A DNA stretch of 64,000 nt from an uncultured Planctomycetia bacterium (GTDB lineage Bacteria > Omnitrophota > Gorgyraeia > 1-14-0-20-64-10): the NCBI GenBank assembly GCA_964373805.1, contig CAYJWF010000003.1:23001-87000 (forward strand), in the 5' to 3' direction. Numbering within the stretch: position 1 is the first letter of the stretch; each line of letters opens with the position of its first letter. Both the position numbers and the translations under genes were made by a program. The notes under the pieces are model-generated. The model had not been told where the DNA came from. It was given only the letters and a program-made list of their open reading frames with translations, and did no database searches. Shown here piece by piece: positions 42,956-61,737 of this stretch.

Positions 42956-42957
42956 CG

Positions 42958-44984: not shown

Positions 44985-44997
44985 TATGGGGTTCCTT

Positions 44998-46675: not shown

Positions 46676-48471
46676 CCGTCGCTCTGCAGGGCTATTTCTT
46701 CTGTGAGCCTTTTCGTCCAGTCATCCAGCCAGTTTTTCTTTTCACGCGCGTAGCGATCCACAAAAATGCTTCGGGCCTGTTGGATCTCTTGGCCTCTCCA
46801 CCACAGCTCGGGGTCATGACAAATCGCCTTGACCTTGACCGCTGCCTCTTCAGGTGAATTCCACAGGATACCAGCGCGACGGAGTTCTTCGAAATAAGGA
46901 ACGGCTTCATCTCGTATCTCCCACCTCTGAGGATCCCAGAACATCACTGTCGGAACATTCGCTGCCAAGATTTCTAAAAGGGGAGTGGATAAATGGTCAA
47001 CGACAACGAGACGGCTTTTCCGAAGGCTCCGACAAAACGGAGTGCCATTGCCGTCCCAACGCAATTCGGGAAACTCTGTGGAGTACCACTCTCGGAGCTT
47101 GTGCCCAAAGTGATGCCGATGGGGCCGAAAAAGGATAAGCGCACGCAGCGGATTGGGAAGCGCTCTTAAAAAACGAAGTTGCCAATCAAAATATTCCTGG
47201 AGCTGTGTTCCTTGGGGCGAAGAGTAGAAGCGGTAGAGATATCGAGGATTGGTTGTGGCAACAAAAAGGACACCCCGCATCTTCTGAGGATCCCGATGGC
47301 CCAGCCGATTCGTCAAGGAAGAAATTTGGAGAGAAGGTACGTTCTGCAGGTGTCCCTTCTTCTGATCGGCCCATCCCCATACGAGAAAAGAGTCCGATAC
47401 ACAGCGCTCATGTTGTTCCATCGGGGCCGCACGGTAGATCCCGTATCCGCCTCCATGTTGAACAGCGACCAACCGGCGTCCTTTTAGCTGGGCCTCCGCG
47501 GCCAGGAATTTGAACGGTTCGTTAAAATACCAGCCGTTTCCCGATACAATTACAGACGGAATTCTAGGGTTTTTTCTAAGCAGCTCCTTATGGGCTTGAT
47601 GGAATCCTTCACAATAGAGGGTCGGGAAATTCTTTGGCAGGGAGTTCACAAAGACAGATTCGAACCCGTTGACTGTAGGAAGTGCGGCAAGCCCATTCCG
47701 GCGGTGGTCAAAGATCGGGTTCCACGTGGTCTGGGTCCATCCACCCCTTGGCTTTAAGGGCAGGGCTCGCAGGCCACTGCGCCAGGCCAGGGTCCATGCC
47801 GTGATGCTGGAAACAGCGAGGTCACAAAGAGCGACCTCACATCGGCGACTCAAGAGTCCTTGGGCAACGTCCTCTAGCTGGTCAAGGCTCCGCCGGACTG
47901 CAACCTTTACCCAACCGGATCCAGCGGCTCTCAGCGTGGGCTTTTTCTTCACGGCCCAGTCGGGTTGCAGCTTTTGAGCTGGAAAGAAAAGCCCCATGGC
48001 TTGGAACAATTGAGAAAAGATCTGAAGATTATACGGATCCTCCCGGATGGAATCGATGTACTCCGATGTGTCCTGGGGGACATGGAACGATTGAGGGTCC
48101 AAAACAATCGTCTGCCATTTTGGATATTTATCGTAGGCCTCTAGGAGATGCATGTACCTATCGTAGGCAGCGTGAAGATAGTGAAAGAGCCATGGCCCTA
48201 CGAGTATCCGCCAATACCGACGATTAAAGCTCACTTGATGAACCCCGTTCAAGTAATCGCTCAAGTCAACCAGCATACGCTCATAGCATTCCTCGAGATA
48301 GCGGGTCGCGTGGAGGTGCCGGCTTCGATCATCCCAAGGGCTTGGCATCACCCGATACCGAAGAGGGTTCCACTCCGAGCGCCTGTCGTATCGAAGACAC
48401 CAAGAACCCAGGAAGAGGATTTCTTGGTTCTTATCCCAGAATTGGCTCAGCGCGGTTGTTGCCAGAAACAT
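46633..48471 (-). CDS. hypothetical protein, paralog B of the three-member family (putative transferase, LIC12162-like?)
   Basis: 612 aa. N-terminal EILFLG and central PSVIVSGNGWYFNEPF...RLVAVQHGGGYG block align with 37094..39220 and 61727..63808. Confidence 0.5.
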   Translation of the reverse strand: MFLATTALSQFWDKNQEILFLGSWCLRYDRRSEWNPLRYRVMPSPWDDRSRHLHATRYLEECYERMLVDLSDYLNGVHQVSFNRRYWRILVGPWLFHYLHAAYDRYMHLLEAYDKYPKWQTIVLDPQSFHVPQDTSEYIDSIREDPYNLQIFSQLFQAMGLFFPAQKLQPDWAVKKKPTLRAAGSGWVKVAVRRSLDQLEDVAQGLLSRRCEVALCDLAVSSITAWTLAWRSGLRALPLKPRGGWTQTTWNPIFDHRRNGLAALPTVNGFESVFVNSLPKNFPTLYCEGFHQAHKELLRKNPRIPSVIVSGNGWYFNEPFKFLAAEAQLKGRRLVAVQHGGGYGIYRAAPMEQHERCVSDSFLVWGWADQKKGHLQNVPSLQISSLTNRLGHRDPQKMRGVLFVATTNPRYLYRFYSSPQGTQLQEYFDWQLRFLRALPNPLRALILFRPHRHHFGHKLREWYSTEFPELRWDGNGTPFCRSLRKSRLVVVDHLSTPLLEILAANVPTVMFWDPQRWEIRDEAVPYFEELRRAGILWNSPEEAAVKVKAICHDPELWWRGQEIQQARSIFVDRYAREKKNWLDDWTKRLTEEIALQSDGCLGNRWWKRSPGI

Positions 48472-50503
48472 CCACCCTCCTCCCGTACGTCATTCTCCTC
48501 GTCAACCGCTGGATTCCTCCCAGCCTTTGGATCAGTTTGACCATCCCGGAGAGTTGGGTTCCATAACGAGTAAGGGCATCCTGTCTTAAGAGGACTTGCT
48601 CCTCACTGAACGTAAAGCTTAGCCAAATTGGGTCAGCCCGATGGTACGATCCCAGCGACGCCGAGGGATCATCGGTCAGCCAGGCGGGCAGATCAAAGCT
48701 GAAGCTTTCGCTCAGTGCCTCTGGGTGCGCAGTCAGTTGAAAAGCTCCCTCCATGCGACACAGGGTAAAACGCTTTAACTCCTCGAGCTCTTGTGGTTGG
48801 ATATCCCGCAGCCTTTCCTCTAAGAATTTTTCCGAGATGGCAAAAACCGTGTCCAGCCACTCTCGTGCAGCCTGGGATAGCATCCACGTTTTGTGCTTGT
48901 AAAGAACATTGCCGCCCGCCTCACCGGTGAGAAGCTTTTGGTAATGCTCAGGGCTGGAGTAAAAAGCGATGAGCTCCTCCTCGGAATCCCAAAGCTCGTT
49001 GAGGGTTTCAGAGGTAAAGCTATCAAAAATGGTCTTAACGGCTGCAGGCAGATGGGTGGTTTCACGATAAATGGCTTCGATCCAATCCGAGATTAGCAAT
49101 CGATGGGAGCGAATATATTTCTTAAGCGCTTCACAGAGAGTGCCGTTGTAGCAAAGGTCAATCACAAAGAGGAGTTTTCGGGATTCCAGGTAATCTTCTA
49201 GTGAAAAGGCGTTGGTCGCTACGGCGACTTCCTCGGTGTCAAATACGCAACGTCCATTGTAAGTTCCAAAATCAAGTGGAACCACCCGGTATTTTCGGAT
49301 AAAGCCATATTCCCGGATATAGGCATCGTTATCTTTGTAAGGCGTTCCATGCAACATTTGCAGCGTGTGTACGACGATGGTACTCACCTGAGAATCCAGA
49401 AGGTTTCGGATGCCTCCCAGATGCGAGATCCAGGTCTCGCCAGGCAAAGGGACAATCAGTTCAGCCACCTGCGGCCGCCCCTGGGAATTGAGCTCCTCGG
49501 AGATCGCCCGATAATGATCCAGTCGGATGTTGGACCTTTCGATCTTCTTTAACACGGTACTGTCCATCGATTGAACCGCCATGTTGATGATCAGGGTATC
49601 TTTTAGAATTCTCGTCACATCGATAACACGCTGCTTGCTATTTTTTCCGGTCCAGGCGGTTACCGAAAGAGGCCACCCATACCTTTCCTGAAGCCGATGC
49701 ATAAGTTCAGCCGTTTTGTAGTCTCGGGGAATCATGCCGAAATTGTTATCCGCGAGTGTCAGGTGTCCGACGCCCGCCCGTGAAGCCCGTTGAGCGACGT
49801 ATTGCCATTCCTCTTGCACGTATTGGTCGCTGAAAAAATCCACCCGATTGAAATACGAATTTCCCGCGTTACAGAAATTACAGGTAAAGGGACAGCCTCG
49901 CGCCGTCTCAAGCAAAGGCGCCAACCGGCCATCGAAGAATCTATCCAGAAGGCCCGTTGCGTATGGAGAGGGAATGGAGTCAAGATCTTTGATTCTTTCG
50001 ATGGATGGGCCGGAAAAGAATTCGCCGCTCTCCTTCTGGATGAATTGGCACCCTGCGATCGGCTTGGCCAGTACCTCTGGGTATTCCAAGCAAGAGAGGC
50101 GCTTTTCAATAACATTGGAGAAAGCGATTTCAGCCTCATAAAACGTATGACAATCCAATTGCGGCCTTTTGAGAAGAAATTCTCTTTGCTTCGATGGATC
50201 GAATGGGTAATTGGTTCCTCCAAAAACGGTTAGGATTTTTGGGTCAATCGATTTCACGAGTTCTAAGAAATAATAGGAAAGGTTGCTGTTCCACGTATAA
50301 TTACTGCAGCCCAAAACATGAGGGGCCCTCCGATCGATGGCCTCTCTTAAGTCCTCAGGATATTTAAAGAAAGACACCTCGATCTCGTTTCCAAATTTTT
50401 TGATCGCATAGGAACCGATCAGACCGATATTCAGAGGAAAGGCTTCTGTCGCAATTCCAACCCCCATGTGGGTCAAATCGGCAAGATAAATTCTTAGCGG
50501 CAT
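48431..50503 (-). CDS. B12-binding domain-containing radical SAM protein (class B radical SAM)
   Basis: N-terminal cobalamin-binding-like Rossmann region. CPFTCNFCN = CxxxCxxC radical SAM cluster motif at ~aa 200. Large C-terminal domain, 690 aa. Confidence 0.7.
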   Translation of the reverse strand: MPLRIYLADLTHMGVGIATEAFPLNIGLIGSYAIKKFGNEIEVSFFKYPEDLREAIDRRAPHVLGCSNYTWNSNLSYYFLELVKSIDPKILTVFGGTNYPFDPSKQREFLLKRPQLDCHTFYEAEIAFSNVIEKRLSCLEYPEVLAKPIAGCQFIQKESGEFFSGPSIERIKDLDSIPSPYATGLLDRFFDGRLAPLLETARGCPFTCNFCNAGNSYFNRVDFFSDQYVQEEWQYVAQRASRAGVGHLTLADNNFGMIPRDYKTAELMHRLQERYGWPLSVTAWTGKNSKQRVIDVTRILKDTLIINMAVQSMDSTVLKKIERSNIRLDHYRAISEELNSQGRPQVAELIVPLPGETWISHLGGIRNLLDSQVSTIVVHTLQMLHGTPYKDNDAYIREYGFIRKYRVVPLDFGTYNGRCVFDTEEVAVATNAFSLEDYLESRKLLFVIDLCYNGTLCEALKKYIRSHRLLISDWIEAIYRETTHLPAAVKTIFDSFTSETLNELWDSEEELIAFYSSPEHYQKLLTGEAGGNVLYKHKTWMLSQAAREWLDTVFAISEKFLEERLRDIQPQELEELKRFTLCRMEGAFQLTAHPEALSESFSFDLPAWLTDDPSASLGSYHRADPIWLSFTFSEEQVLLRQDALTRYGTQLSGMVKLIQRLGGIQRLTRRMTYGRRVDVSGNNRAEPILG

Positions 50504-51462
50504 GATTCCTTCTCGAGGCAGACAAAGTGGTAACCGCCCAGCGCCTTACTTCTTCCATCCAATTCAACCAGTTCTTTGAGAAAGGGTCGAATCGTATCAA
50601 TCCAATCCGATTTGATGGACCGGCGATTGGCTTCGCTCATCTTTTCTACCATTCGAATCAGGACGGGAAATAGGGGGCGCAGGCCGATGTCCCATACCCT
50701 CAAGGTCAAAGGAGAAAGATAGGAATGGTGCGACACCATCTTAAACCTGAGGCTATGGGAGAGCCTTCCCAATTCAGATTGAGAAATGGTCCAGCGGATG
50801 GATTCGCTTCTTCCTCTGTTTAACAAATGGAGAATGGGTGAGCCCGACTCTCTCCAGTGGTAACTCATGCAGTATTCCTTGAGCTTGGGATCCGGTAAAC
50901 ACAGGAAGGCCCGGCCTCCCCACCGGAGGATCCGCCACACCTCCTTGAGCGATGCCTCAGCCGAATTGAGCCAGTACAACATATTGGAAAAAATCGTCTG
51001 AAAGGATTCCTCCTGGAAAGGAAGCCCATGGTTGGCGTTTGAGGCAGCCACCCAACGATAGAATCCCAACGCTTCTGCCTGGCGTAATAAATTCGGTTTG
51101 CCGTCCAAGGCCCCATCGAATGAGGCCTCCGGTTTTCTTACGATCCAAGCCGGTTCGAAGGGAGCTCGAAGGCAGTCATACACGTCCCCATGGGTCCAAA
51201 AGCCCTTTACATCGACGTTTCGATACCAATCAAACTCCGGTGAGAACGATCCTCCCGCTGTGATGAAACTGAAAATTCCGTTCCCACAACCGAGGTCAAG
51301 CGATGGAGAATCGAACCTCACCGATGCAATCACAGAGGAAGCAATGGCATCCCATAACGCCGATTCGGGTCGAAGCCAGTGTACATTCAGATGCTCCTCA
51401 AGAAAACAGAATGGCCCCGCTTGAGATCCCCGTAAAGCTGGACTAGAGATTTGCTGAGGCAT
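50494..51462 (-). CDS. class I SAM-dependent methyltransferase
   Basis: LDLGCGNGIF motif I. Start assigned to internal ATG (MPQQISSP). The first 54 aa of track ORF 50494..51624 look antisense-derived. Confidence 0.6.
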   Translation of the reverse strand: MPQQISSPALRGSQAGPFCFLEEHLNVHWLRPESALWDAIASSVIASVRFDSPSLDLGCGNGIFSFITAGGSFSPEFDWYRNVDVKGFWTHGDVYDCLRAPFEPAWIVRKPEASFDGALDGKPNLLRQAEALGFYRWVAASNANHGLPFQEESFQTIFSNMLYWLNSAEASLKEVWRILRWGGRAFLCLPDPKLKEYCMSYHWRESGSPILHLLNRGRSESIRWTISQSELGRLSHSLRFKMVSHHSYLSPLTLRVWDIGLRPLFPVLIRMVEKMSEANRRSIKSDWIDTIRPFLKELVELDGRSKALGGYHFVCLEKESCR

Positions 51463-52078
51463 AGGCCTGCCTGCGTTGGAGCACCTTCTCTGCCAGCCAG
51501 AAGTCGAATTCATCGTCAATCTCGAGGTTTTGTTCTCGATCAGTGAACATTCGCTCGATTCGTGTTCCATACCGATCCCCTTGTTGGATGAGACTCGCTC
51601 TAATGACGTACACGTTTCCATCATCGCAAAAGAGGCCGGGCAACTCTTGGCGCCTCAACGTATTCTTCCCATACTCAACAGATTTACAGAGAAAGCCGGT
51701 CGCAAGGGAGTCTGCCTTTGTTTCGAGAAACCTCTCGATGCAACGATCGATGAGACCCGGTTCCCGAATAGGGGAAGTCGCCTGAAGGAGGACCACTATC
51801 TCTGCTGGGATCTGGGTGAGTACCTGTTGGAGAACGCTTAAGGTTGTCGCTTCGTCGCTGGCTAGGTGGTGGGGTCGGTGAATGAACTCACCTGTCCATC
51901 GCCGTGTCACCTGAGCAATCTCAGGGTCTTCCGTAGAAACGACATGCCGATCGAGAAGTCGGGAGGCCTTACCGGCTTCGATCGTCCAGGCGATGAGCGG
52001 CTTACCGGCCAAGATCCGGATATTCTTCCGAGGGACCCCTTTGCTTCCTCCCCGTGCGGGGGTTATTCCCAAGATCAT
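51443..52078 (-). CDS. acylneuraminate/pseudaminate cytidylyltransferase (CMP-nonulosonic acid synthetase family)
   Basis: MILGITPARGGSKGVPRKNIRILAGKPLIAWTIE is the canonical NeuA/PseF/LegF N-terminal motif. 211 aa. Confidence 0.75.
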   Translation of the reverse strand: MILGITPARGGSKGVPRKNIRILAGKPLIAWTIEAGKASRLLDRHVVSTEDPEIAQVTRRWTGEFIHRPHHLASDEATTLSVLQQVLTQIPAEIVVLLQATSPIREPGLIDRCIERFLETKADSLATGFLCKSVEYGKNTLRRQELPGLFCDDGNVYVIRASLIQQGDRYGTRIERMFTDREQNLEIDDEFDFWLAEKVLQRRQAYASANL

Positions 52079-52106
52079 CTTATTTTCTCTAGGCTCCTCG
52101 CCCTCA

Positions 52107-52772
52107 CTAAGTCCATTGATCCCGAATAACCATAAAGGCCTCCGCAGCGGAAAACCCGATTTCCATTCCGCGTTTTTGGGAAAGTACCTCGATCCCCTTA
52201 GGAGATCGAGGATGTGGGAACTCCCTGCTCTCCCTTACATAGGCCTTCAGCGCTTCGATCTTGCGATCAAGGAAATGGCTGATATCGACATAGAAATTCG
52301 GCTGAAAGGCATACTCCTGAAACGGCGGCGCCTGTTCCGTAGAAGAAGCCACTTCATAACAGAGCAGTCGTGGTACCTTTGGCTGTGCAATCGCTCGGCA
52401 GGCGACAAGTGTTGCCTGGAAAACCGCCCGGTGGTCCTGGTTGGAATCGCCTCGATGGTGTGTGTACACGATCGAGGGTTTTACCTGCTGCAGGCAGTTC
52501 TCCAATGGGACGATGATATCCAAAAGTCTTTCATCCAATAATTCATCCCTTAGATCAAGGAATCGCACGTCTTGATAGCCCAATACCTTTGCCGCCCGCT
52601 CAGCGGCCTCTTTCTCCTCTTGGACAATGGGAGGATCGAATCGGTGGTTATAGGCCCGTTTACAAGCGATACAGACCGTCACCGAATCGCCTGCTGCCAC
52701 GTGTTTGGCAATGGTTCCCCCTACCCCAAGTATCTCGTCATCCATGTGAGCCGCAAGGATTAACACCCTCAT
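52107..52772 (-). CDS. PIG-L/LmbE family N-acetylglucosaminyl deacetylase
   Basis: AHMDDE motif, HRGDSNQDH and the second His motif region. 221 aa. Confidence 0.75.
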   Translation of the reverse strand: MRVLILAAHMDDEILGVGGTIAKHVAAGDSVTVCIACKRAYNHRFDPPIVQEEKEAAERAAKVLGYQDVRFLDLRDELLDERLLDIIVPLENCLQQVKPSIVYTHHRGDSNQDHRAVFQATLVACRAIAQPKVPRLLCYEVASSTEQAPPFQEYAFQPNFYVDISHFLDRKIEALKAYVRESREFPHPRSPKGIEVLSQKRGMEIGFSAAEAFMVIRDQWT

Positions 52773-53764
52773 TCCGTTGTCCTCGCAGCCAGCACAAGTT
52801 GATCTCGAATCAGGCCCATGATTCTTTCGGCCCCCCGACCATCCACCAAACTCTTACCTCGTAGGCTCATTCTCTGTCTAGCTTGGAAATCTGCGGCGAG
52901 TCGATCAACGGTCTGATGAATCTTGGCGTCATTAAGGTTCCCGCCAAAACCAAGATTCACCACAGTCCCCATGCCCTCTAGTCTAAGGGCCGTCTCCACC
53001 TCAAAAGGCTCCCCACAAATGGCGATGGCAGGTGTCCCTACACAAGCCAATTCAAACAAGGTGATCCCACCAGCCGAAATGGCCAGATCGGCCTCGTGCA
53101 TCAGCCTGGCCAAATTTGTCGCATCGTGAATGTGGGTCAGATCAAGAGTGGAAGCCGCCAGCGCTTCCTTTAGTTGGGATTGGTGCCGAAAGGCCGGTCC
53201 CGTAACAACCCACACATGGGGACGGTGGGCCATGCCTTCCAATGCGCGGACAACCTTGGGGGTAAAACCATAGGTGTCACTTCCTCCCTGGGTGATTAAC
53301 AGTTTCTGAACCTGCCGTCGACTCGGTTTCTCCCGGCAGTGGAGCTTTTGGAATTCTCTCCTAAGCGCCATGTAAGAGATCTCGGTTACAGCCCGAGGGG
53401 TATGGTACAAAATGTTGATTCGCAGATCTGCAAGCTGTGCGCCCTCCGCCGTATCTTCCATGGTGACGACCAGGCCAGCAAGGCTCTTAAGGGCGCGGAT
53501 GTATTCGGGGAAGTTATTCAACTTGTTAACCACCACGACGTCCGGACAAAAGGATCGAAGAAACTCCTGTTCTTCCGACAATGAATGGAATCCATGGAAA
53601 CGAAGGCCTTCTTTTTCCAGAATCTCCTGGGCCTGCGTATCCTCAGAGATCATAAACGCCGTTTCATCCGAACGCCTCAGGCACTCCTTGGCCAAGGCGA
53701 TACATCCCCAGAGATCTCCCAGCCCTTGGCGGTGATTGCCTTCTGTTCGAAAGACGATTCTCAT
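52769..53764 (-). CDS. PseG-like UDP-sugar hydrolase (MurG-like GT-B fold; pseudaminic-acid-biosynthesis-associated family)
   Basis: MRIVFRTEG...GDLWGC N-terminus, LLITQGGSDTYGFT and AISAGGITLFELACVGTPAIAI blocks resemble PseG. Assignment is from memory of the family, not a search. Confidence 0.5.
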   Translation of the reverse strand: MRIVFRTEGNHRQGLGDLWGCIALAKECLRRSDETAFMISEDTQAQEILEKEGLRFHGFHSLSEEQEFLRSFCPDVVVVNKLNNFPEYIRALKSLAGLVVTMEDTAEGAQLADLRINILYHTPRAVTEISYMALRREFQKLHCREKPSRRQVQKLLITQGGSDTYGFTPKVVRALEGMAHRPHVWVVTGPAFRHQSQLKEALAASTLDLTHIHDATNLARLMHEADLAISAGGITLFELACVGTPAIAICGEPFEVETALRLEGMGTVVNLGFGGNLNDAKIHQTVDRLAADFQARQRMSLRGKSLVDGRGAERIMGLIRDQLVLAARTTE

Positions 53765-53768
53765 GGGG

Positions 53769-54788
53769 TCATTCCAACTTTTCCCAGGTAATGACCTCGT
53801 CCTTCCGGATGGCTTGCTTGGCGAGTCGGCCGATAACGGTCCGATAAAGCGAAGGGGCTACGCCCGTTCCAGGGCGCTTCAAAATAATCTGGTCCTCAGA
53901 GATCGCTTCCCCTGCCTGAATGTCACTACGAGCGATGGCGCTCTTCCGAGTCTGCAGCCGCATATTCTCCTCAGTGGGGGCTGGACGTTTCACCTCATCT
54001 CCTAGGGCTTGTTCAAGCTCCCGAACGGCTAAGACCAACGCCTTCATTTCCGGTGGATCTGCAGAGAAAAAAGCGTCGGGTGAATCCAGGTGCTTATCGA
54101 GAGTAAAATGGCGCTCAATCACCGATGCTCCTAAAGCGACAGCACCCAGCGGAACACTCAGGGTCATCGTGTGATCTGAAAAGCCAATCGGCGCCTTGTA
54201 CGCCTTTTGCAGGGCACGAATGGCCTTGAGATTAACGAGGTGAAGATCCTTGACCGGATAGTTGGAAATGCAGTGGAGAATGGCCACCTGGTTGTTTCCC
54301 GTGTCGAGGATAGCTCGCACAGCCTCATCGACCTCCGCTAACGTAGCCATCCCCGTTGAGAGAATAATCGTTTTACCCTTCTGGGCGACATAGCGGATGA
54401 ACGGGAGATTGGTCAGATCGTCCGAACCGACCTTGTAAGCCGGCACCTCAAGTCGTTCAAGGAGGTCCACATCATCAAAATAGCTGGGGGTTGAAAAGAC
54501 CATGATCCCACGGTTTCGAGCGTGAGCAAAAAGTTCACCGTGCGCTTGTTCAGAAAGCTCATATCTCTGGAATTCTTCAAATTGATTCGTGCCACCGGCC
54601 TCTGCTGGAAAATCGACCATTCGAGAAGTAACCGTTTCTGCCCTAAACGTCTGGAACTTCACAGCATCTACGCCGCATTCCATAGCAGCGTCGATAGTGG
54701 CCTTGGCCTCTTCCAGTGTATTAAAGTTATATCCGATCTCAGCGATAATGAAGACCGGTTGGCCTGTGCCGATGAAACGATCCGCCAT
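53769..54788 (-). CDS. N-acetylneuraminate/pseudaminate/legionaminate synthase family (NeuB/PseI/LegI), full length with C-terminal SAF domain
   Basis: PVFIIAEIGYNFNT (IAEIGxNHxG-like), AVKFQTF, KVGSDDLTN, ILSTGMATL, GFSDHT, IERHFTLD, then a C-terminal SAF/antifreeze-like region. Start at internal ATG (MADRFIGTG) at 54788. Confidence 0.8.
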   Translation of the reverse strand: MADRFIGTGQPVFIIAEIGYNFNTLEEAKATIDAAMECGVDAVKFQTFRAETVTSRMVDFPAEAGGTNQFEEFQRYELSEQAHGELFAHARNRGIMVFSTPSYFDDVDLLERLEVPAYKVGSDDLTNLPFIRYVAQKGKTIILSTGMATLAEVDEAVRAILDTGNNQVAILHCISNYPVKDLHLVNLKAIRALQKAYKAPIGFSDHTMTLSVPLGAVALGASVIERHFTLDKHLDSPDAFFSADPPEMKALVLAVRELEQALGDEVKRPAPTEENMRLQTRKSAIARSDIQAGEAISEDQIILKRPGTGVAPSLYRTVIGRLAKQAIRKDEVITWEKLE

Positions 54789-54816
54789 CTTTACCTTCTG
54801 CTGGAGGGTGGAAGGA

Positions 54817-55536
54817 TTATTCAAGGATTTTCTCCAAAGTTTGCGCGCCGATTCCTTTCAAGATATCGCCACTCCTTGGACCATGGTTGAATAGAAGATC
54901 AATAGCAGACATACAAGGCAGAAACGTTTCATGGAGCTGCTGATAAATGGGATGGTGGAACGCCTGAATTTGAACCTCAACGCCCTCACTGCGGAACTTC
55001 TCTAGGTCAAGGTAGGCTTTCCCTGAAATACCGGACAGATACCTTGAAGCCCCAACCTTCTGACAAATCTCTAGGTTCAAATCTCCCTTTCGTGCTTGGA
55101 TTCCAAGTTCCGAAGAACGTTTCAAGGGTACGGAGATCGCAAAGGCCTCCAGCAGGTACCGGATGATGGTTTCGTTAAGGTCAACAAGCCATTTCCATTG
55201 GCAGTGATACAGCTTTTCAAAAAATTCGGCGTGCGCAGGAAAAAAGCAGGCCTTCCGGTAACAATCCATCAGAAGACGTAAGCAGGTCCTTCGCCAATGA
55301 GGACTCCCCGTATTATCAATCTCAACCTGATTAATGGATTGCAGGTGTCTTCCCTTAATCAAGATGGGAACCGTAAGCCAGCGGAATCCTTCAGAGGATC
55401 GGATTCTGTTCCGGTTTTGGAAATACTGTTTTCTGTACTGCACATGATCCAGAAGAACCAATAGATCCACCTGCCGGGCCTTATCGAAAAAACCAAGCCA
55501 CGGAAGGTGCTCGGGTTGGTGGATGGTTACCGTCAT
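54817..55536 (-). CDS. WbqC-like family protein
   Basis: MTVTIHQPEHLPWLGFFDKARQVDLLVLLDHVQY is the conserved WbqC N-terminus. Start at internal ATG. The upstream 101 aa of track ORF 54817..55839 are antisense-like. Confidence 0.65.
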   Translation of the reverse strand: MTVTIHQPEHLPWLGFFDKARQVDLLVLLDHVQYRKQYFQNRNRIRSSEGFRWLTVPILIKGRHLQSINQVEIDNTGSPHWRRTCLRLLMDCYRKACFFPAHAEFFEKLYHCQWKWLVDLNETIIRYLLEAFAISVPLKRSSELGIQARKGDLNLEICQKVGASRYLSGISGKAYLDLEKFRSEGVEVQIQAFHHPIYQQLHETFLPCMSAIDLLFNHGPRSGDILKGIGAQTLEKILE

Positions 55537-55564
55537 CTGGCCTGCCTTTTTACCTGCCCGGGGT

Positions 55565-56641
55565 TTACTTCCCCACTTCCTGTGGTCGTCCCACCAGATC
55601 GTCCAAGACGATGGTTCTGCTTCCGATCTTCCGGGGAACCTTGACGGTTGCTCGAGGAAGATAACACACCTGACAGGGCTCGAAGGTTTCAACGCCTTTA
55701 GATCTTCCGTGCACCTGCCGGATTTCCCGCATCGGTTTCCCGTTCCAAATCTCGTAGAGAGACTGAATTCGGGCGTCTCCAATGGGCTGACGGCCCAATT
55801 CATCGTTGATACACATAAACGCGCGGCCATCCGAGCCAATCACAAGGCGCTGAAAAGGCACGGGACAGACAAAATTCTTCACGTACTGAATCTCCGTATC
55901 CTGGTGAAGATAATCCAACAGGGTGTTGACGCTGATCTCATCGGCTATAGCCTCAAACGTACTCCAGTAGTCCTCGGGATTTTCTTGGATGGCAGGCCAG
56001 ATCCCTTGTATCCTGACGACCGGCTTAACGCTCTTGTTTCTTTTTTTGATTTCAGCGAATTTCCGAATTTTATCAACCATCGCAGGGAATTGCGCCGGTG
56101 CCCGGATTTTCTCATACGTCTGCCCTACCCCATCGAAGGAGATGGTGAGCCAATCCATCTGGAGATTGACCATCTCTTCAAACATCTCCGGGGTAAGCCT
56201 CAGGGCATTGGTGAGGGAATCCACCTCTTTGATCCCCCTCTGTTTTGCGTAACGAATGCAATCCATGAAACGGTGGTTCAGGGTCGGTTCCCCTCGCCAG
56301 CTTAGGCGGATGGAATAGACGTGGTGATCCGCCAGTTCATCTACGATCCTACAAAAGAGGGAATAGTCCAGATTCGTGTGTGGGACGGTTTTTCGAAAGG
56401 CCTCGGTAACGGTATAACACATTGGACATTTCATGTTGCAGGAGGAAGAAAGCTCCAAATCGACATGATCCGGATAGGAACCAGCCAGCCGAAGCCGAGG
56501 ATAAAGGTGCCATCGCACGCGGTTCCAGAAATATCGGACCCGGTGCCCTTTCCCTCGGTTCCAATGAAATTGGGCATGTCTCCAAAAGCCGCTAGCGCCG
56601 AGGTCTGATTTATTTATCTGCATATTTCTCTTGTCCGCCAT
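55565..56641 (-). CDS. radical SAM protein with C-terminal SPASM/twitch Cys-rich domain
   Basis: CNMKCPMC = CxxxCxxC, then C-terminal CPVPF...C...CQVCYL cysteines. Start ambiguous: ATG at 56641 or 56623. Track ORF starts 56704. Confidence 0.65.
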   Translation of the reverse strand: MADKRNMQINKSDLGASGFWRHAQFHWNRGKGHRVRYFWNRVRWHLYPRLRLAGSYPDHVDLELSSSCNMKCPMCYTVTEAFRKTVPHTNLDYSLFCRIVDELADHHVYSIRLSWRGEPTLNHRFMDCIRYAKQRGIKEVDSLTNALRLTPEMFEEMVNLQMDWLTISFDGVGQTYEKIRAPAQFPAMVDKIRKFAEIKKRNKSVKPVVRIQGIWPAIQENPEDYWSTFEAIADEISVNTLLDYLHQDTEIQYVKNFVCPVPFQRLVIGSDGRAFMCINDELGRQPIGDARIQSLYEIWNGKPMREIRQVHGRSKGVETFEPCQVCYLPRATVKVPRKIGSRTIVLDDLVGRPQEVGK

Positions 56642-57638
56642 GATAATACAGGGGCACACACCAGTGGTTCTTGGCCACCCAGTCGGTGTTTGGCAGTTCG
56701 ACATCGCGGTGGAATATCCGGTGACACGGCTGGTCGTATACCTTACCGGTAGATTCCTTCACCGGTTCAAAGACAATGTACTTGTAGTAACCGGAGCTCA
56801 TCCCCTCCGGAAACGTTAGCCGGGAAGGATAGACAGGATCCAGAACCCTCTGGGCAAACTCTCTCTTCCAATCTACGATCTCTGGCATTCGCTCGACTTG
56901 GAGGCAACCAAGGGCTGCTGTAAATTCACTGATTCTGTAGTTAAGCCCTTCGATGGAGTAGCTCGGTTTCCCGTAGTTTCGATAGGATCGGGCAAAGGCT
57001 GCCAGTGTCTCATGTCGGGTCACCAGCATTCCCCCCTCCCCTGTCGAAATGGTCTTTGTGGCGGTGAAGGAATAGATCCCCGCATCCCCCCACGTTCCAG
57101 GCCTGCGACCGTTCCACTGGGCGCCATGAGCGTGCGCGCAGTCCTCCAGTAAGAAGATCCCCTGCTTTAGGCAATAGGCAGCGATGGCCGCCACATCAAA
57201 GGCGATGTGACCTCCGATGTGAACAAGCCATGCGGCGGTTGGACGATGCGCCTTAGCCTTGCGGACAAAGTCTTCGTAAGACATGCAGAGGTCTCTTGGA
57301 TTGCAGTCGACAAATTCCACACGACCCCCCGCCTTAAGCGTAGAAAGAGGAGTGGCCATGAAGGTATTGGAGGGACACAACACCACCTGGTCTCGAACAT
57401 GGGCGTACTCCAGGGCCGCCATGGCAGCCCCAGCCCAGCTTCCCGTCGCCACCGAAGGCAACCCGTTCCATAAGGACCAGAGCTCCTCAAAGCGAGCCGT
57501 AAATGGTCCTTCCGTCCAGCGTTGGGATGTCAGAATGCGGTCCCACATTTCATGAAGACGGTTCCTGTCCCGTTGGTCAAATCCGATGGCGAAGGCCATC
57601 GTTTGTTCCGGACACATCTTAAGGTCGGAGGGCAGCAT
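56610..57638 (-). CDS. DegT/DnrJ/EryC1/StrS family PLP-dependent aminotransferase (sugar-nucleotide 4-aminotransferase, PseC/LegC-like)
   Basis: Fold-type I sugar aminotransferase layout. The FTATKTISTGEGG block is where DegT-family enzymes carry their PLP-binding lysine. ~340 aa. Alternative start ATG ~57617. Confidence 0.7.
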   Translation of the reverse strand: MLPSDLKMCPEQTMAFAIGFDQRDRNRLHEMWDRILTSQRWTEGPFTARFEELWSLWNGLPSVATGSWAGAAMAALEYAHVRDQVVLCPSNTFMATPLSTLKAGGRVEFVDCNPRDLCMSYEDFVRKAKAHRPTAAWLVHIGGHIAFDVAAIAAYCLKQGIFLLEDCAHAHGAQWNGRRPGTWGDAGIYSFTATKTISTGEGGMLVTRHETLAAFARSYRNYGKPSYSIEGLNYRISEFTAALGCLQVERMPEIVDWKREFAQRVLDPVYPSRLTFPEGMSSGYYKYIVFEPVKESTGKVYDQPCHRIFHRDVELPNTDWVAKNHWCVPLYYHGGQEKYADK

Positions 57639-58563
57639 CTGCCTTATTCCAAGTTTGGATCTGTTGTTCCTGACGGGAGCGATACCAATCGATATAACGC
57701 TCTAGTCCATCTCGGAAGGTGGTGGTGGCCTTCCAGCCCAACTCCTTCTCCGCCTTGGCGCTGTGGACACGCTTGCCCGGAAAATCCCCTGGTCGAGCGG
57801 AGGTGGCCAGAACCTGAACGTCTCCTAAGATCTCCTGAAGGGTCTGGACAATCTGTTTAATGCTGATACGATCACTTCCATCCAGGTTGTAGATCTGGTT
57901 GACTGCACCGGGTTTCAGGCTCAGCACAATGCCTTCCGCTAAGTCCTCCACGTAAACAAACTGGCGGAACTGCATGCCGTCCCCTGCAACCGTTAGCGGC
58001 TCTCCCTTCAAGGCCCTGCCGACGAAAATGGGGATGACTGCCCCATCGCGCGCTCGCGGACCATAAGGAATGCCAAAGCGAAGGATCGTGTATTCCAAGT
58101 TGTACAGTACGGAATAGGCACGGCAGTAGTATTCGGAGGCAATCTTGGTGGCCGTATAAAGGTGCGAAGGGGGTGGGATCGGCGTCTCCTCATTCACCTC
58201 CGCATCGGGGCAATCGCTGTAAACCCAGCTGGTACTTCCATAGAGGAGGCGCTTGACACGACAGCGTCGTGCAGCCTCTAGAACACAGAGGGTACCCCGT
58301 GTATTAACGGTTTCTGCGTAGGATGGATCTTCCATGACCTCCTTGACATCGGCGACTGCCGCGAGATGTATGACGGCGTGGATTCCCGCCATGGCAATCC
58401 GGAGAGCCTCAACGTCCAGGATGCTTCCGATGAAATGTTCCACCTCTGTATGAACCGTTGAACGATGATGGTCAAAGATCAGGGGTGTAATCCCGTGCGA
58501 CATCAAGCGATCCACCACATGGGAACCAATAAACCCCGCGCCACCTGTCACGAGAACTCTCAT
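57619..58563 (-). CDS. NAD-dependent epimerase/dehydratase (GalE-like SDR)
   Basis: VTGGAGFIGSHVV and YTATK motifs. Confidence 0.75.
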   Translation of the reverse strand: MRVLVTGGAGFIGSHVVDRLMSHGITPLIFDHHRSTVHTEVEHFIGSILDVEALRIAMAGIHAVIHLAAVADVKEVMEDPSYAETVNTRGTLCVLEAARRCRVKRLLYGSTSWVYSDCPDAEVNEETPIPPPSHLYTATKIASEYYCRAYSVLYNLEYTILRFGIPYGPRARDGAVIPIFVGRALKGEPLTVAGDGMQFRQFVYVEDLAEGIVLSLKPGAVNQIYNLDGSDRISIKQIVQTLQEILGDVQVLATSARPGDFPGKRVHSAKAEKELGWKATTTFRDGLERYIDWYRSRQEQQIQTWNKADAALRP

Positions 58564-59573
58564 GCGACCGTTCCTTTTTGGGCAGACGCCAGATGCCGTC
58601 GAAGAAGCTCCAAAGCGGTCTTCGCCGCTTTGGTCTGAGATTCCACGGTGGCCCCTGCCATATGCGGTGTGATGACGATCTGCCCCCGTTGATGGTAAGC
58701 CAAAAGAGGAGAGTTCTTCTGCTGATGGGTTACCTCCCCGGCTAACACATCCAATCCAACGCGCAGATCCGGTCGCTTGGAAAGAACATCGGCCAAGTCC
58801 TGTTCAAGGATGACCTCTCCACGGGATGTATTGACCAGACAAGCCCCCCATTTCAGTCTTTCGAGAAAGGAGTGGTTAATGAATCCTGTCGTTTCAGGGG
58901 TAAGTCGACAGCAAAGACAGATAACTTCCGATCGGCTAAAGAGTTCCTCCAGCGATTCGGTGGGATAGACATCGGAGGTGACGTACGGATCGAAGTAGGA
59001 TACTCGAGCCCCAAAGGCAATGCAGTAATGGGCCAACCGCTGACCGATTCGCCCAAGGCCGATGATTCCCACCCGTTTACCCTGCAATTCGTGGCCTCGA
59101 AGTCGCTCCTCTCGATCCCGCCATCGCCCAGCAGAAACTTCTTGGATTGCTACATCGAGGCGGCGAAGGGTGTTCAGAAGTAACAAAAACGTGAATTCCG
59201 AGCTGGCCGAGATCTGCACGAGAGCGGCTCGATCATCCAAGAGGCTGTAGACGGAAACCCCTCGCCGGGTACACGCCTCCAGATCGATGTGGTTACAGCC
59301 GGTGGAGGGGGTAACCAACACGGACAGAGAAGGATACAGGTCCAAGATCGCCTCATCGATGACAAACAGTTGTCCAGGGTTTACCACCCATGCCGTAAGG
59401 TCCTCCGCAGGACTCAGCTCTTGACGACGCCAGATCTCTTTAAAGATGGTTGGGATCAAGGACTGGTAGGCCTCCACGAGCTTTCCGAGGAATTCAAACG
59501 GCGCACTAAAGAGGCACCATCCGGTTTTTACACCTGCGAGAGCCGTTGGGGAAGATGGATGGGGTGTCCCCAT
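58560..59573 (-). CDS. D-isomer-specific 2-hydroxyacid dehydrogenase family protein (NAD-binding)
   Basis: GIIGLGRIGQRLA dinucleotide-binding motif, conserved R/E/H catalytic arrangement (TSRG...ITPHMAG). Confidence 0.7.
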   Translation of the reverse strand: MGTPHPSSPTALAGVKTGWCLFSAPFEFLGKLVEAYQSLIPTIFKEIWRRQELSPAEDLTAWVVNPGQLFVIDEAILDLYPSLSVLVTPSTGCNHIDLEACTRRGVSVYSLLDDRAALVQISASSEFTFLLLLNTLRRLDVAIQEVSAGRWRDREERLRGHELQGKRVGIIGLGRIGQRLAHYCIAFGARVSYFDPYVTSDVYPTESLEELFSRSEVICLCCRLTPETTGFINHSFLERLKWGACLVNTSRGEVILEQDLADVLSKRPDLRVGLDVLAGEVTHQQKNSPLLAYHQRGQIVITPHMAGATVESQTKAAKTALELLRRHLASAQKGTVA

Positions 59574-59574
59574 A

Positions 59575-60318
59575 TCAAAGATTCCTCGCTACCCCGGAGA
59601 GGTTGTTCAAGGTTGCCTCTGCCATCATGGACAACTCCGGTCCCAGAGTCGTCAAAAGACGAAACTCATCTGGTGTAGCGCTTAAGATGTGATCGCGGAT
59701 AACCTGGGAAGTCTTATTCAACGTAAAGTGCTTCTCGATGTAACGTGCACCCCGAGCTGCAGCCAACAAACAAGCGGCGATTCCATGGCAATGGTCGCTG
59801 TAGCCATAATAGCCATCCGATCCAAAAAGCGGGGGGAAATCCGTTAGGTCCGAAGGATAGGTCGGGTATTTCGACCGGCAGTAAATGTAATGCAGGCGAT
59901 GGGCATCGGGCTGCCCGAATGGGAAACCAGGCCTGTCCCACATACCAAGCGAAACGTAGGTCGGCTTGCCCTCCGATAAGATCCGCTCGCATAAGGCGGG
60001 GTTGTCAACCACCGTCCTTGAAGCGATCTTGTATCGCTGCAATCCAATGCCCTGGGCAAGGGCGAGCCCTTCCTCCGTTATGAGGGAAGCTAACATCTCA
60101 ATGCCGATGCCCTCACACCAGGCCTTTAGTTGCCTAGCTTGCTTCTCATCGATCTGATTGATTTCCCCTGGATTGCAACGCCATCCGAACTGGAACTTCG
60201 CCAGTTCAGCGCCGGCCATCCTTGCCTGCCGGATCAGCTCGTAGGCCAGATCGAAATTGCCATCGTGGTTTAATCCGATCTCAGCAACAAGAACCATCTG
60301 TTTATCTGCTAAGGCCAT
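59575..60318 (-). CDS. NeuB-family TIM-barrel protein lacking the C-terminal SAF domain (divergent nonulosonic/ulosonic acid synthase-like)
   Basis: VAEIGLNHDGN, AELAKFQ, YKIASR, YVSLGM, YSDHCHG and IEKHFTLNK match NeuB barrel motifs. The protein ends ~40 aa after the barrel, 247 aa. Confidence 0.6.
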   Translation of the reverse strand: MALADKQMVLVAEIGLNHDGNFDLAYELIRQARMAGAELAKFQFGWRCNPGEINQIDEKQARQLKAWCEGIGIEMLASLITEEGLALAQGIGLQRYKIASRTVVDNPALCERILSEGKPTYVSLGMWDRPGFPFGQPDAHRLHYIYCRSKYPTYPSDLTDFPPLFGSDGYYGYSDHCHGIAACLLAAARGARYIEKHFTLNKTSQVIRDHILSATPDEFRLLTTLGPELSMMAEATLNNLSGVARNL

Positions 60319-60336: not shown

Positions 60337-61737
60337 TCACATCGCAGTAGACAGACTTACCGTTCTTTGTAAAAGGATCTGTTCGATAAGCCAAGCGTCA
60401 TAAGGCGTTTTAATTTGATAGCTCTCGTGCCCGGGCATAACCACATGCCCAACTTTTCGACCGAGGAGGTCTTTCGCGGTCAACACATCGCGCCAGCATG
60501 CCTTGATCGCTCCATTGTCCACATACAGTGCTTCCCGCTCGATTCGTATCTGATGGTGCATGGCTGGGTTTAAGGGTGTGAGTCCATGGATGCCATGGAC
60601 ATAATGAAGTTTATAATCCTCATAGACGCTCAGGACGCTGTCTGTGTTATACAGGATGAGCGTGTCAATCGCTTCCCGGATATGTTCTGCTCGACGAAGC
60701 GGAGTATGAACATTCAGCAGAACAAGAATATCCGAGTAGACCCCGTGTTCCTCTTCCAGGCGGCGCACAGCATCCTCGGCTATTTCGCTTTCCAGGATCC
60801 GATCCCCAGAAAGTTCCACTGGCCGGAGCATCGCTAGGACTTCGGGAAAACGCCGACAGTATTCAACTACTTGCGGATCATCGGTAGTCACCAGCATGAC
60901 CTCAAAACTGCCAGTTTGTTGGGCGGCCTCTATGGTGTAATCAATCAGCAGGCGATCTGCCAACTTCGTCAGGACGATGTTCGGTAGAGCTTTATACGTG
61001 TTTTTAGCGGTCACAATCGCCACGGCACGGGGTGTACCGTTCCCACCTCTTCGTTCCACTATATCTCGCTTGATCCGACCTCGTGCTTGCAGCAATCGTG
61101 ATTCATCTTTTGTGAGTGACTCATCATGTTGCCGGTAGAAGAACAGAGGTGTGTGGACATTCGCTACGCCATAACGGTGTAGTATCTTTAGCCACAACTC
61201 ATAACCATCCTGGCTGTTGTAACGTTCGTCATATCCACCCAAGCTCTTGAGCGCCCGTTTACGGATTAAGGTGCCTGCGCCGTGCGCAGGAAGATCCAAA
61301 AGTTGTGCCTCTTGCCCAATCCGTTTACGCTGCTCAAGCCCTAAATAGTTGCCACGTTCATCTACATAGATGTAGTTCGGATAGACTAACGCCACCTCCG
61401 GATAGCGATCAAGATAAGATCCCAGGACAAGGAGTGCATTCTCATCCAGGTAGTCATCGGCATCCAGCCGCATGATATAAAGGCCACGGGCAATGGCAAG
61501 GGCCTCATTCGCAGACACCTGAAGACCCCGCACTTGAGGATGGGTGATGACGGAGATCTTTGAAGGGTTACTTGCCCGATAGGAGGCGGCAATGGCCGAC
61601 GTTTGGTCCTGCGACCCATCATCAATGATGATCAGTTCCCAATCAGGCATTGTTTGTAACAGTACGCTTTCTATCGCCTGGGCGAGGAAGTGTCCATACC
61701 GGTGGCATGGAATGTAAACGGTAACTCTACATTCCAT
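60337..61737 (-). CDS. fusion protein: GT2 glycosyltransferase (N) + acylneuraminate cytidylyltransferase-like CTP_transf_3 domain (C)
   Basis: N-terminus has VYIPCHRYGHFL...IIIDDGSQD...RLDADDYL (GT-A DxD). C-terminus has AIVTAKNTYKALPNIVLTKLADRLLIDYTIEAA, a NeuA/KdsB-like glycine-poor variant. Confidence 0.6.
   Translation of the reverse strand: MECRVTVYIPCHRYGHFLAQAIESVLLQTMPDWELIIIDDGSQDQTSAIAASYRASNPSKISVITHPQVRGLQVSANEALAIARGLYIMRLDADDYLDENALLVLGSYLDRYPEVALVYPNYIYVDERGNYLGLEQRKRIGQEAQLLDLPAHGAGTLIRKRALKSLGGYDERYNSQDGYELWLKILHRYGVANVHTPLFFYRQHDESLTKDESRLLQARGRIKRDIVERRGGNGTPRAVAIVTAKNTYKALPNIVLTKLADRLLIDYTIEAAQQTGSFEVMLVTTDDPQVVEYCRRFPEVLAMLRPVELSGDRILESEIAEDAVRRLEEEHGVYSDILVLLNVHTPLRRAEHIREAIDTLILYNTDSVLSVYEDYKLHYVHGIHGLTPLNPAMHHQIRIEREALYVDNGAIKACWRDVLTAKDLLGRKVGHVVMPGHESYQIKTPYDAWLIEQILLQRTVSLSTAM

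Follow-up and report, generated by a model that had tools for sequence, protein, structure and literature searches.

How could a nonulosonic acid (NulO) be built by a gene cluster in which neither the 4,6-dehydratase nor the N-acetyltransferase of the known routes is recognized? The question is raised by positions 50494-60318 of a 64,000-nucleotide stretch of DNA from an uncultured bacterium of the Omnitrophota (contig CAYJWF010000003.1; the whole 64-kb stretch is called the window here). We think it reasonably probable that this region is a widespread, uncharacterized variant of NulO biosynthesis within a lipopolysaccharide (LPS)/O-antigen-type locus, with a mechanism that we infer from homology. 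Its genes form an operon on the minus strand, tightly packed and with overlapping stops and starts. Several of the mechanically called open reading frames (ORFs) were too long at their 5′ ends, and their true starts follow orthologs and the genes called on an identical contig. Pfam and NCBIfam searches placed every domain named in a preliminary description of this DNA where it had been assigned, and revealed two genes missing from that list, one for a radical S-adenosylmethionine (SAM)/SPASM protein between the WbqC and DegT genes and one for a methyltransferase. The operon reads as follows:

50494..51462, minus strand: SAM-dependent methyltransferase (Methyltransf_11, 31.8 bits)
51443..52078, minus strand: cytidylyltransferase, CMP-ulosonate synthetase type (CTP_transf_3, 91.9 bits)
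52107..52772, minus strand: PIG-L family de-N-acetylase (PF02585, 80.7 bits)
52769..53764, minus strand: PseG-family NDP-sugar hydrolase-like protein (TIGR03590, 106.4 bits)
53769..54788, minus strand: NeuB+SAF ulosonic-acid synthase (PF03102, 281.8 bits; SAF, 47.6 bits)
54817..55536, minus strand: WbqC-family protein, 239 aa (WbqC, 231 bits)
55565..56623, minus strand: radical-SAM/SPASM protein, BtrN-like (Radical_SAM and SPASM)
56610..57638, minus strand: DegT-family pyridoxal-phosphate (PLP) aminotransferase, short form of 342 aa (PF01041, 184 bits)
57619..58563, minus strand: extended short-chain dehydrogenase/reductase (SDR), GalE/UXS-like (Pfam Epimerase, 188.8 bits)
58560..59573, minus strand: D-2-hydroxyacid dehydrogenase, PGDH-like (2-Hacid_dh_C, 150.6 bits)
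59575..60318, minus strand: short NeuB-family synthase (NeuB domain only, SAF-less)

Distribution and gene order of the cassette

By sequence and synteny, the core comprises eight genes, for the DegT aminotransferase, the GalE/UXS-like SDR, the BtrN-like radical-SAM protein, WbqC, NeuB+SAF, the PseG-like protein, PIG-L, and the cytidylyltransferase. The order DegT, SDR, radical-SAM, WbqC, NeuB, PseG-like, PIG-L, cytidylyltransferase is kept in loci from Nitrospirales, Nitrospira, Aquabacterium, and a groundwater metagenome-assembled genome (MAG). It is seen in the contexts of three NeuB relatives, where the 330-aa PseG-like protein has no Pfam match and a LIC12162-family protein and a methyltransferase are often close. 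We scanned the surroundings of related NeuB genes, taking one genome per species (51 loci), and determined co-occurrence by tblastn with the window proteins in the ±10-kb flanks of 52 independent loci, many of them on truncated contigs. WbqC was detected at 44 of the 52, DegT at 39, the radical-SAM and PseG-like proteins at 38 each, the methyltransferase at 15 (orthologs of 27-60% identity), and the LIC12162 family at no fewer than 14. With related NeuB genes surrounded by this set of genes again and again across 52 independent loci, the clustering is not due to chance. PIG-L, which had been described as sitting among the pathway genes, is no interloper but a conserved member of the core (31 of the 52 loci), and 28 of the 31 loci that bear it also bear WbqC.

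Carriers span more than 15 phyla, archaea included. They comprise Nitrospirota, Nitrospinota, several proteobacterial classes (with Sideroxydans and Pelagibacteraceae among them), Chloroflexota, Planctomycetota, Latescibacterota, Elusimicrobiota, Omnitrophota, Acidobacteriota, Bacillota, Armatimonadota, Fibrobacteria, and groups of the Candidate Phyla Radiation (CPR), with Bathyarchaeota and Nitrosotalea on the archaeal side; two carriers, Aquabacterium sp. A7-Y and Azospirillum formosense CC-NFb-7, are in culture. Throughout this range, NeuB is inherited together with the genes for the radical-SAM protein, WbqC, and PIG-L, and we therefore regard these three as core rather than optional steps. 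The radical-SAM and WbqC genes together are the signature of the cassette, and the signature genes of the variant are these two plus PIG-L.

The cassettes fall into two sub-types, the window's own group (NeuB at least 52% identical) and more distant loci. In the former, identity to the window's proteins is 50% or more for PIG-L and, in the loci where it was detected, for the cytidylyltransferase, and the cassette-type SDR was detected in five of nine loci; SDRs of other types occur in the distant loci. In Azospirillum (locus L031), the radical-SAM, DegT, NeuB, PseG-like, WbqC, cytidylyltransferase, and PIG-L genes are adjoined by genes for a GDP-mannose dehydratase (GMD)/LegB-like SDR, a CBS-nucleotidyltransferase (PtmE-like), a formyltransferase, and a Maf-like protein. 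The cassette of Aquabacterium sp. A7-Y (L004/L010, NZ_JAPFBW010000002.1) is bordered by genes for an APH-like kinase, two long NDK-like proteins, solute-binding proteins, a major facilitator superfamily (MFS) transporter, and a fatty-acid hydroxylase; no glycosyltransferase (GT) was found within 10 kb, and the product may be used differently there.

Departure from canonical pathways and a proposed route

We scored the window proteins against the equivalog hidden Markov models of the pseudaminic (Pse) and legionaminic (Leg) acid pathways, and no cassette protein scored at or above a cutoff. The DegT protein reached 128.7 bits with PseC (TIGR03588, cutoff 423.5) and 111.2 with LegC (TIGR04181, cutoff 420), the PseG-like protein 106.4 with PseG (TIGR03590, cutoff 153.55), and the full-length NeuB 289.7 with PseI (TIGR03586, cutoff 340.25) and 347.6 with NeuB_NnaB (TIGR03569, cutoff 399.65; short NeuB, 108.5). 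With LegB (TIGR04180, cutoff 475), the cassette SDR scored 129.8 bits and other window proteins at most 174; the best score of any SDR in the window with PseB (TIGR03589, cutoff 407.75) was 45.6. PseF (TIGR03584, cutoff 205.7) gave 99.0 for the core cytidylyltransferase and 61.2 and 56.8 elsewhere in the window. Across all chained ORFs of the window, we found no Polysacc_synt_2/PseB-type dehydratase at a meaningful score, no match to Epimerase_2 (the NeuC/LegG-type hydrolyzing 2-epimerase), and no Pfam match to a GNAT, hexapeptide, or other acetyltransferase (PseH/LegH). The earlier statement that a PseB/CapD-type dehydratase and a GNAT/hexapeptide transferase are missing therefore holds for the whole window and, as that description had also proposed, the cassette by these scores does not map onto canonical Pse or Leg routes.

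The full-length NeuB (alternative TTG start at 54824) matched PseI 8h2c (193 bits), SpsE 1vli (180 bits), and NmNeuB (160 bits) in the Protein Data Bank (PDB), and has the TIM-barrel domain of the NeuB superfamily (PF03102) with the metal-binding His pair and the catalytic Glu and Lys. Its subfamily, which PGAP names only "N-acetylneuraminate synthase family protein," holds more than 100 clusters of about 344 aa at 58% identity or more and has Asp at the position of NmNeuB Glu134, a replacement reported for archaeal and eukaryotic synthases (PMC8208679). The core cytidylyltransferase carries the canonical ARGGSKGVPRKN motif and scores 59 bits as KdsB type. These results support a module in which an ulosonic acid depends on NeuB for its synthesis and on a dedicated enzyme for its activation with CMP. 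The alternative named earlier, that the PseG-like protein is a MurG, was not borne out (TIGR03590, 106.4 bits; murG, 25.4 bits). A single-sequence search of the PDB found nothing for this protein, but its family profile matched Campylobacter jejuni PseG 3hbm over the full length (E 1.4e-20) and MurG in the C-terminal half only. At the column of the catalytic His17 of PseG, the window protein and its nearest group have Asp (GLGD/GMGD), and the distant loci have the canonical His.

The radical-SAM family has an invariant CxxxCxxC (C62/C66/C69) and exactly four other invariant cysteines (C253/C271/C317/C320). Its profile matched BtrN 4m7t best in the PDB (E 1.4e-13), covering the twitch domain with all four auxiliary cysteines aligned, so that the protein combines CxxxCxxC with a single auxiliary 4Fe-4S site held by four twitch-domain cysteines, as BtrN does. 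By this analogy, it may oxidize a carbinol to a ketone. A DesI/DesII-like deamination pair formed with DegT is less likely (DesII, E 1e-3 with the same profile). The DegT protein, which keeps its PLP lysine in SFTATK, is about equally close to DesI 2po3, the Kdo8N transaminase KdnA 5k8b, and the scyllo-inosose/BtrR aminotransferases. The best PDB matches of the SDR were GalE 4zrm, UDP-GlcNAc 4-epimerase 6wjb, and UXS, and its orthologs share invariant GST(S/T)W-VYSD and YTATK and lack the T-D-E dehydratase residues; on these features it is probably a UDP-HexNAc 4-epimerase or a keto-reductase. Given the invariant STSW/STTW in place of T-D-E and the PDB matches to epimerases and UXS, we rejected the SDR as the missing 4,6-dehydratase.

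The fold predicted for WbqC may be of the HUP/class I aminoacyl-tRNA synthetase (aaRS)-like type, nearest to BshC, MshC, and the catalytic domains of class I aaRS, and the protein is a candidate ATP-dependent N-acyl ligase. Neither single-sequence nor profile searches of the PDB matched it, and Foldseek with the model gave no significant match there. The best NCBIfam matches of PIG-L are BshB1 and BshB2. Taken together, a BshB-like PIG-L and a putatively aaRS/BshC-like WbqC suggest a step in which a sugar amine is deacetylated and then acylated at the expense of ATP. Two further genes, downstream and with translational overlap, complete the set:

48431..50503, minus strand: B12-binding radical-SAM protein of the KedN5-like C-methyltransferase family (B12-binding and Radical_SAM; NF033712, 181 bits, under the cutoff)
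46633..48471, minus strand: LIC12162-family transferase (TIGR04331, 483.9 bits, cutoff 225, full length)

The B12 radical-SAM gene, an accessory, overlaps both of its operon neighbors and, speculatively, could account for C-methylated or C10 ulosonic acids such as those of Magnetospirillum. B12 radical-SAM genes also adjoin NeuB genes in loci L060 and L062. The LIC12162 protein is the only one of the set above a curated cutoff and is a candidate transferase for the CMP-sugar; members of its family lie downstream of neuABC in Herbaspirillum, as possible sialic-acid transferases (PMC6679464).

In the route that we propose, an NDP-N-acetylhexosamine would be converted to a CMP-activated amino-nonulosonic acid without the classical pair of 4,6-dehydratase and acetyltransferase. 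The radical-SAM enzyme would abstract a carbinol hydrogen, as BtrN does, to give a keto or deoxy-keto intermediate, which DegT would aminate and/or the SDR would reduce or epimerize. PIG-L would remove an N-acetyl group, and WbqC would re-acylate a free amine through an acyl-adenylate formed from ATP and a carboxylic or amino acid, following the logic of BshB/BshC and MshB/MshC. The 2-hydroxyacid dehydrogenase may be an accessory that supplies a hydroxy-acid to WbqC; its gene lies 3′ of the short NeuB in locus L059 and 5′ of DegT in L002. The PseG-like enzyme, with Asp for the catalytic His, would then remove the nucleotide to release the free sugar, NeuB would condense it with phosphoenolpyruvate (PEP), and the cytidylyltransferase would make the CMP-sugar. 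Methyltransferases, the B12 radical-SAM C-methyltransferase among them, would decorate the sugar, and the LIC12162 protein would transfer it to the glycan. Tailoring could occur at the hexose stage or, as in Kdo8N, on the nine-carbon acid. More tentatively, the route may be new in three respects: the radical-SAM enzyme, not an NAD-dependent 4,6-dehydratase, would provide the ketone for transamination, WbqC would N-acylate the sugar amine, and the B12 radical-SAM enzyme would C-methylate to a "C10" ulosonic acid. We regard this combination as possible but doubtful. If it is true, the product may keep its C9 hydroxyl or undergo radical deoxygenation or epimerization. N-acylation of a sugar amine with an amino or hydroxy acid would then be shown for an aaRS/BshC-like ligase for the first time, in WbqC, and would account for the uncommon N-acyl groups seen in NulOs from the environment.

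Several observations weigh against the interpretation as a self-contained variant pathway. To our knowledge, the ligase chemistry of BshC itself is not firmly established. WbqC also occurs in loci with a formyl- or hexapeptide-type transferase and is therefore no simple replacement for PseH/LegH. Distant cassettes contain a GMD/LegB-like dehydratase and a PtmE-like nucleotidyltransferase; since they keep the classical dehydratase, the radical-SAM step cannot be a general substitute for dehydration and must do something additional. A dehydratase or acetyltransferase could be encoded beyond the 64-kb window. The co-occurrence counts come from ±10-kb flanks of contigs that are often truncated. 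Finally, the cytidylyltransferase domain of a GT2 fusion next to the short NeuB lacks the canonical phosphate-binding motif.

If the dehydratase and the N-acetyltransferase are indeed encoded elsewhere in the genome, the cluster would be an ordinary Pse or Leg pathway, with radical-SAM, WbqC, and PIG-L as late decorations. There is precedent for such scattering: Leg synthesis in Bacillus subtilis uses a PseG-like SpsG and a dehydratase whose gene, spsM, is at a second locus (PMC7439481), and legH of C. jejuni lies apart from the leg genes. The distant cassettes with LegB-like and PtmE-like genes are in keeping with it, and the window is 64 kb of a metagenomic genome. We nonetheless consider this unlikely, given that no window protein reaches a Pse/Leg equivalog cutoff, that the three supposed decorations travel with NeuB across more than 15 phyla, that the catalytic His of the PseG-like protein is Asp in the window's group, and that the cassette SDR is without dehydratase residues. 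Quite improbable, in our view, is that the core makes not a glycan sugar but a small-molecule conjugate of an amino sugar or aminocyclitol, using a deacetylase, a BshC-like ligase, a BtrN-like dehydrogenase, and a BtrR-like transaminase. Such pathways do offer counterparts for each of these enzymes (BshB nearest to PIG-L, BshC/MshC to the predicted WbqC fold, and BtrN to the radical-SAM protein, with BtrR and scyllo-inosose transaminases among the matches of DegT), and the Aquabacterium neighborhood, where genes for kinase-like, MFS, and binding proteins occur and glycosyltransferases are missing within 10 kb, would suit it. But NeuB+SAF, the PseG-like protein, and a CMP-type cytidylyltransferase belong to the same conserved block, the block of the window sits amid an O-antigen ligase, heptosyltransferases, many glycosyltransferases, and the LIC12162 transferase, and the cassette has neither a BshA/MshA-type GT4 nor an inosose synthase.

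The variant NulO pathway that we favor can be placed beside known systems. Like the Pse pathway of C. jejuni and Helicobacter pylori (PseB-C-H-G-I-F), the cassette has a DegT aminotransferase, a PseG-family GT-B hydrolase-like protein, NeuB+SAF, and a CTP_transf_3 protein, and in both a free sugar would be condensed with PEP and then CMP-activated. It differs in having no PseB dehydratase or PseH, in the sub-cutoff scores of its four homologs, in the His-to-Asp change of its PseG-like protein, and in its additional core genes (radical-SAM, WbqC, PIG-L, and the GalE-like SDR). The Leg pathway of B. subtilis (SpsM, C, D, G, E, F; PMC7439481) offers a PseG-like hydrolase, SpsG, outside the Pse pathway, and its SpsE is the second PDB match of the full-length NeuB; SpsA (GT2) resembles one half of the GT2-cytidylyltransferase fusion described below, and SpsF (cytidylyltransferase) the other. 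However, sps has a CapE/PglF-type dehydratase and an acetyltransferase and is without radical-SAM, WbqC, and PIG-L. Candidatus Kuenenia stuttgartiensis is reported to contain CMP-NulOs with one free and one formylated amine, plus methylation, and a NulO cluster with a deacetylase and a formyltransferase, and Magnetospirillum to contain CMP-activated C10 ulosonic acids that are unexplained (preprint 10.64898/2026.04.20.719630). The Kuenenia finding is independent support for the idea that clusters with a deacetylase yield de-N-acetylated NulOs. That cluster shares a deacetylase with ours, and the Azospirillum cassette likewise has both a formyltransferase and PIG-L; compared by description, it differs in that the preprint describes legB/legC/legG homologs and mentions neither radical-SAM nor WbqC. 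The Leptospira NulO cluster is not the same cassette, being canonical Leg plus Neu.

For the individual steps, butirosin (BtrN/BtrR) and Kdo8N (KdnB/KdnA) biosynthesis both oxidize an alcohol and then transaminate. The cassette radical-SAM protein is BtrN-like with a single twitch auxiliary cluster, although about 100 residues longer, and DegT is as close to KdnA and BtrR as to any sugar-nucleotide transaminase; KdnB is an Fe-dependent alcohol dehydrogenase, whereas the cassette enzyme is a radical-SAM protein. In bacillithiol and mycothiol synthesis, BshB/BshC and MshB/MshC parallel the adjacent PIG-L and WbqC with its predicted BshC/class I aaRS-like fold. However, BshC has no detectable sequence similarity to WbqC and is 540 aa long (WbqC, 239 aa), and the context there is thiol biosynthesis, here NulO/LPS.

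In the open-access literature, we found nothing linking radical-SAM enzymes or WbqC to NulO synthesis and no functional study of WbqC/PF08889 or of the LIC12162 family, and the cassette offers a testable role for both families. Sialic-acid-like sugars on LPS, flagella, and S-layers shape phage, immune, and biofilm interactions. Mass-spectrometry surveys have turned up NulOs in which amines are free, acyl groups are odd, and carbon chains are longer, and the cassette provides candidate genes for this chemistry. Its carriers include nitrifiers, organisms of anammox-type habitats, SAR11, and archaea, and the cultured Aquabacterium and Azospirillum strains make it experimentally tractable.

Second and third cytidylyltransferase modules

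The preliminary description had also pointed to duplicated synthase and cytidylyltransferase functions, with a SAF-less NeuB-like gene at 59575-60318 and two further cytidylyltransferase domains, at 40146-40937 and in the C-terminal half of 60337-61737. We found all three: a NeuB domain without SAF in the first and CTP_transf_3 in the others. The extra genes are thus real, but the term "duplicated" does not fit, because identity to the long paralogs is 25% for NeuB and 23% for the cytidylyltransferase. At this divergence, a recent duplication is rejected, and the paralogs are ancient members of different old families. The genes concerned, with their large neighbors, are the following:

60337..61737, minus strand: GT2 fused to a divergent cytidylyltransferase-like domain (Glycos_transf_2, 101.5 bits; CTP_transf_3, 29.8 bits, gathering threshold 22.6)
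61727..63748, minus strand: 673-aa protein, distantly LIC12162-like, without a Pfam match (693-aa ORF, true start M21)
40146..40937, minus strand: third cytidylyltransferase (CTP_transf_3, 42.4 bits; PseF, 61 bits)
37094..39220, minus strand: 708-aa TIGR04326-like surface carbohydrate biosynthesis protein (81.9 bits, cutoff 250), without a Pfam match

We find it hardly credible, and largely refuted, that the second NeuB and the additional cytidylyltransferase domains have decayed or are redundant copies with no function of their own. In favor of this reading is what the proteins lack, SAF and about 30 residues in the short NeuB and the canonical ARxGSK..KN motif in the fusion. Yet more than 100 clusters, 64-78% identical, make up the short NeuB family (about 232 aa), in which NmNeuB Glu25, Lys53, Lys129, Ser154, His215, Glu234, and His236 have invariant counterparts, and structure prediction gives a confident, full (β/α)8 model. 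We therefore rejected the short NeuB as a pseudogene; we also rejected it as a KDO8P/DAHP synthase. In each of four contexts examined, the gene immediately upstream of the short NeuB encodes the fusion (460-482 aa), and both genes show only the 23-25% identity to the long paralogs given above.

The short NeuB has invariant Ala-Ser-Arg-Thr where NmNeuB has Gly-Ser-Gly-Glu134, and the fusion keeps a DADD motif and has AKNTYxxLPN in place of ARGGSKG..RKN. The SAF-less NeuB of Leptospira (PDB 6ncs) is different: the short family is about 50 residues shorter, has ASRT rather than GSGE at Glu134, and is always paired with the GT2-cytidylyltransferase fusion. In two of these four contexts, a 2-hydroxyacid dehydrogenase gene comes after the short NeuB. 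By tblastn, neither the fusion nor the short NeuB was found near the core cassette in the other loci, and the two therefore constitute a separate, mobile module. With or without the 673-aa protein and the 2-hydroxyacid dehydrogenase, this module is probably responsible for making and handling an ulosonic acid other than that of the core, which fits the option raised earlier that two ulosonic acids are produced, each with its own activating enzyme.

The family of the 673-aa protein has about 190 representatives and gives weak matches to TIGR04417 and TIGR04396 ("surface carbohydrate biosynthesis" models). Its alignment with the LIC12162 family by hhalign was moderate (probability 79%, E 1.6e-5); BLASTP gave no match to LIC12162 for either the 673-aa or the 708-aa protein, nor did hhalign for the latter. 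Each of the three cytidylyltransferases has a large putative transferase nearby, as seen in the pairs 61727-63748 with the fusion, 46633-48471 with 51443-52078, and 37094-39220 with 40146-40937. An ortholog of the third cytidylyltransferase, 56% identical, is the only cytidylyltransferase that tblastn found near the cassette of locus L020. In the window, this gene and that of the 708-aa protein belong to a minus-strand sub-cluster (37094-46675) with FkbM and class I methyltransferases, a GalE-like SDR, a GFO/IDH/MocA oxidoreductase, another SDR, and, at 40934-42955, a methyltransferase fused to a HisC/CobD-like PLP enzyme. The sub-cluster looks like a pathway for a further CMP- or CDP-activated unit.

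Two other arrangements of the short-NeuB module were observed. In L062/L063, the GT2-cytidylyltransferase fusion and the short NeuB have directly upstream of them a 590-aa NeuB-cytidylyltransferase fusion (4839-6620), and a NeuB+SAF gene is also near, giving three NeuB-family genes in one locus. In L060/L061 (10250-13930), the module adjoins a PEP mutase-cytidylyltransferase fusion, a thiamine pyrophosphate (TPP) decarboxylase, and an Fe-dependent alcohol dehydrogenase, which is a phosphonate pathway of the 2-aminoethylphosphonate/hydroxyethylphosphonate (2-AEP/HEP) type and suggests phosphonate decoration of the same glycan.

Setting of the locus

Transcription in the window is entirely from the minus strand, and no tRNA was found in it. 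Housekeeping genes occupy about 1-13 kb (ABC peptide transporter, TIM, PGK, GAPDH, Fmt, and PriA). From about 13.4 kb to the window end extends a single, very large glycan locus with GT2, GT4, and GT9 glycosyltransferases, a Wzy_C O-antigen ligase, a WecA-type initiating transferase, and numerous SDRs and methyltransferases, so that the cassette sits within an LPS/O-antigen-type locus of about 50 kb. The G+C fraction falls from about 0.57-0.61 over 1-16 kb (about 0.58-0.60 in the housekeeping part) to about 0.51-0.55 over 26-64 kb (about 0.51-0.54 in the distal part of the glycan locus), as is typical of surface-glycan loci that are exchanged horizontally. The module is present in identical form on independent metagenome contigs, where the gene calls agree, and its genes have their closest relatives in MAGs of Nitrospirales and Nitrospira (51-76% identity); by these relatives alone, the host would probably be placed in the Nitrospirota.

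Elsewhere in the glycan locus, a GmhB-type heptose bisphosphate phosphatase adjoins a GDP-mannose-dehydratase-like SDR (GSSEEYG) at 14513-16035 on the minus strand; these two genes, with two GT9 heptosyltransferases at 23.8-26.9 kb, suggest a 6-deoxy-heptose branch. The Pfam match of the GalE-like SDR at 18619-19731 (minus strand) falls into two stretches, and the protein is split by an insert of about 40 residues with two CxxC pairs (…YRCGRCGP…ITCPRCRQP…) that looks like a zinc-ribbon. At 28153-29961 (minus strand), a WecA/MraY-family protein (Glycos_transf_4) has a C-terminal region resembling CoA_binding_3 and the N-terminal part of EPS-sugar transferases, an unusual architecture for an initiating transferase. 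Between this gene and an SDR gene lies, at 29958-31781 (minus strand), the gene of a subtilase (Peptidase_S8) that combines a fervidolysin-like prodomain with a lectin domain of the Laminin_G_3/ConA-like type.

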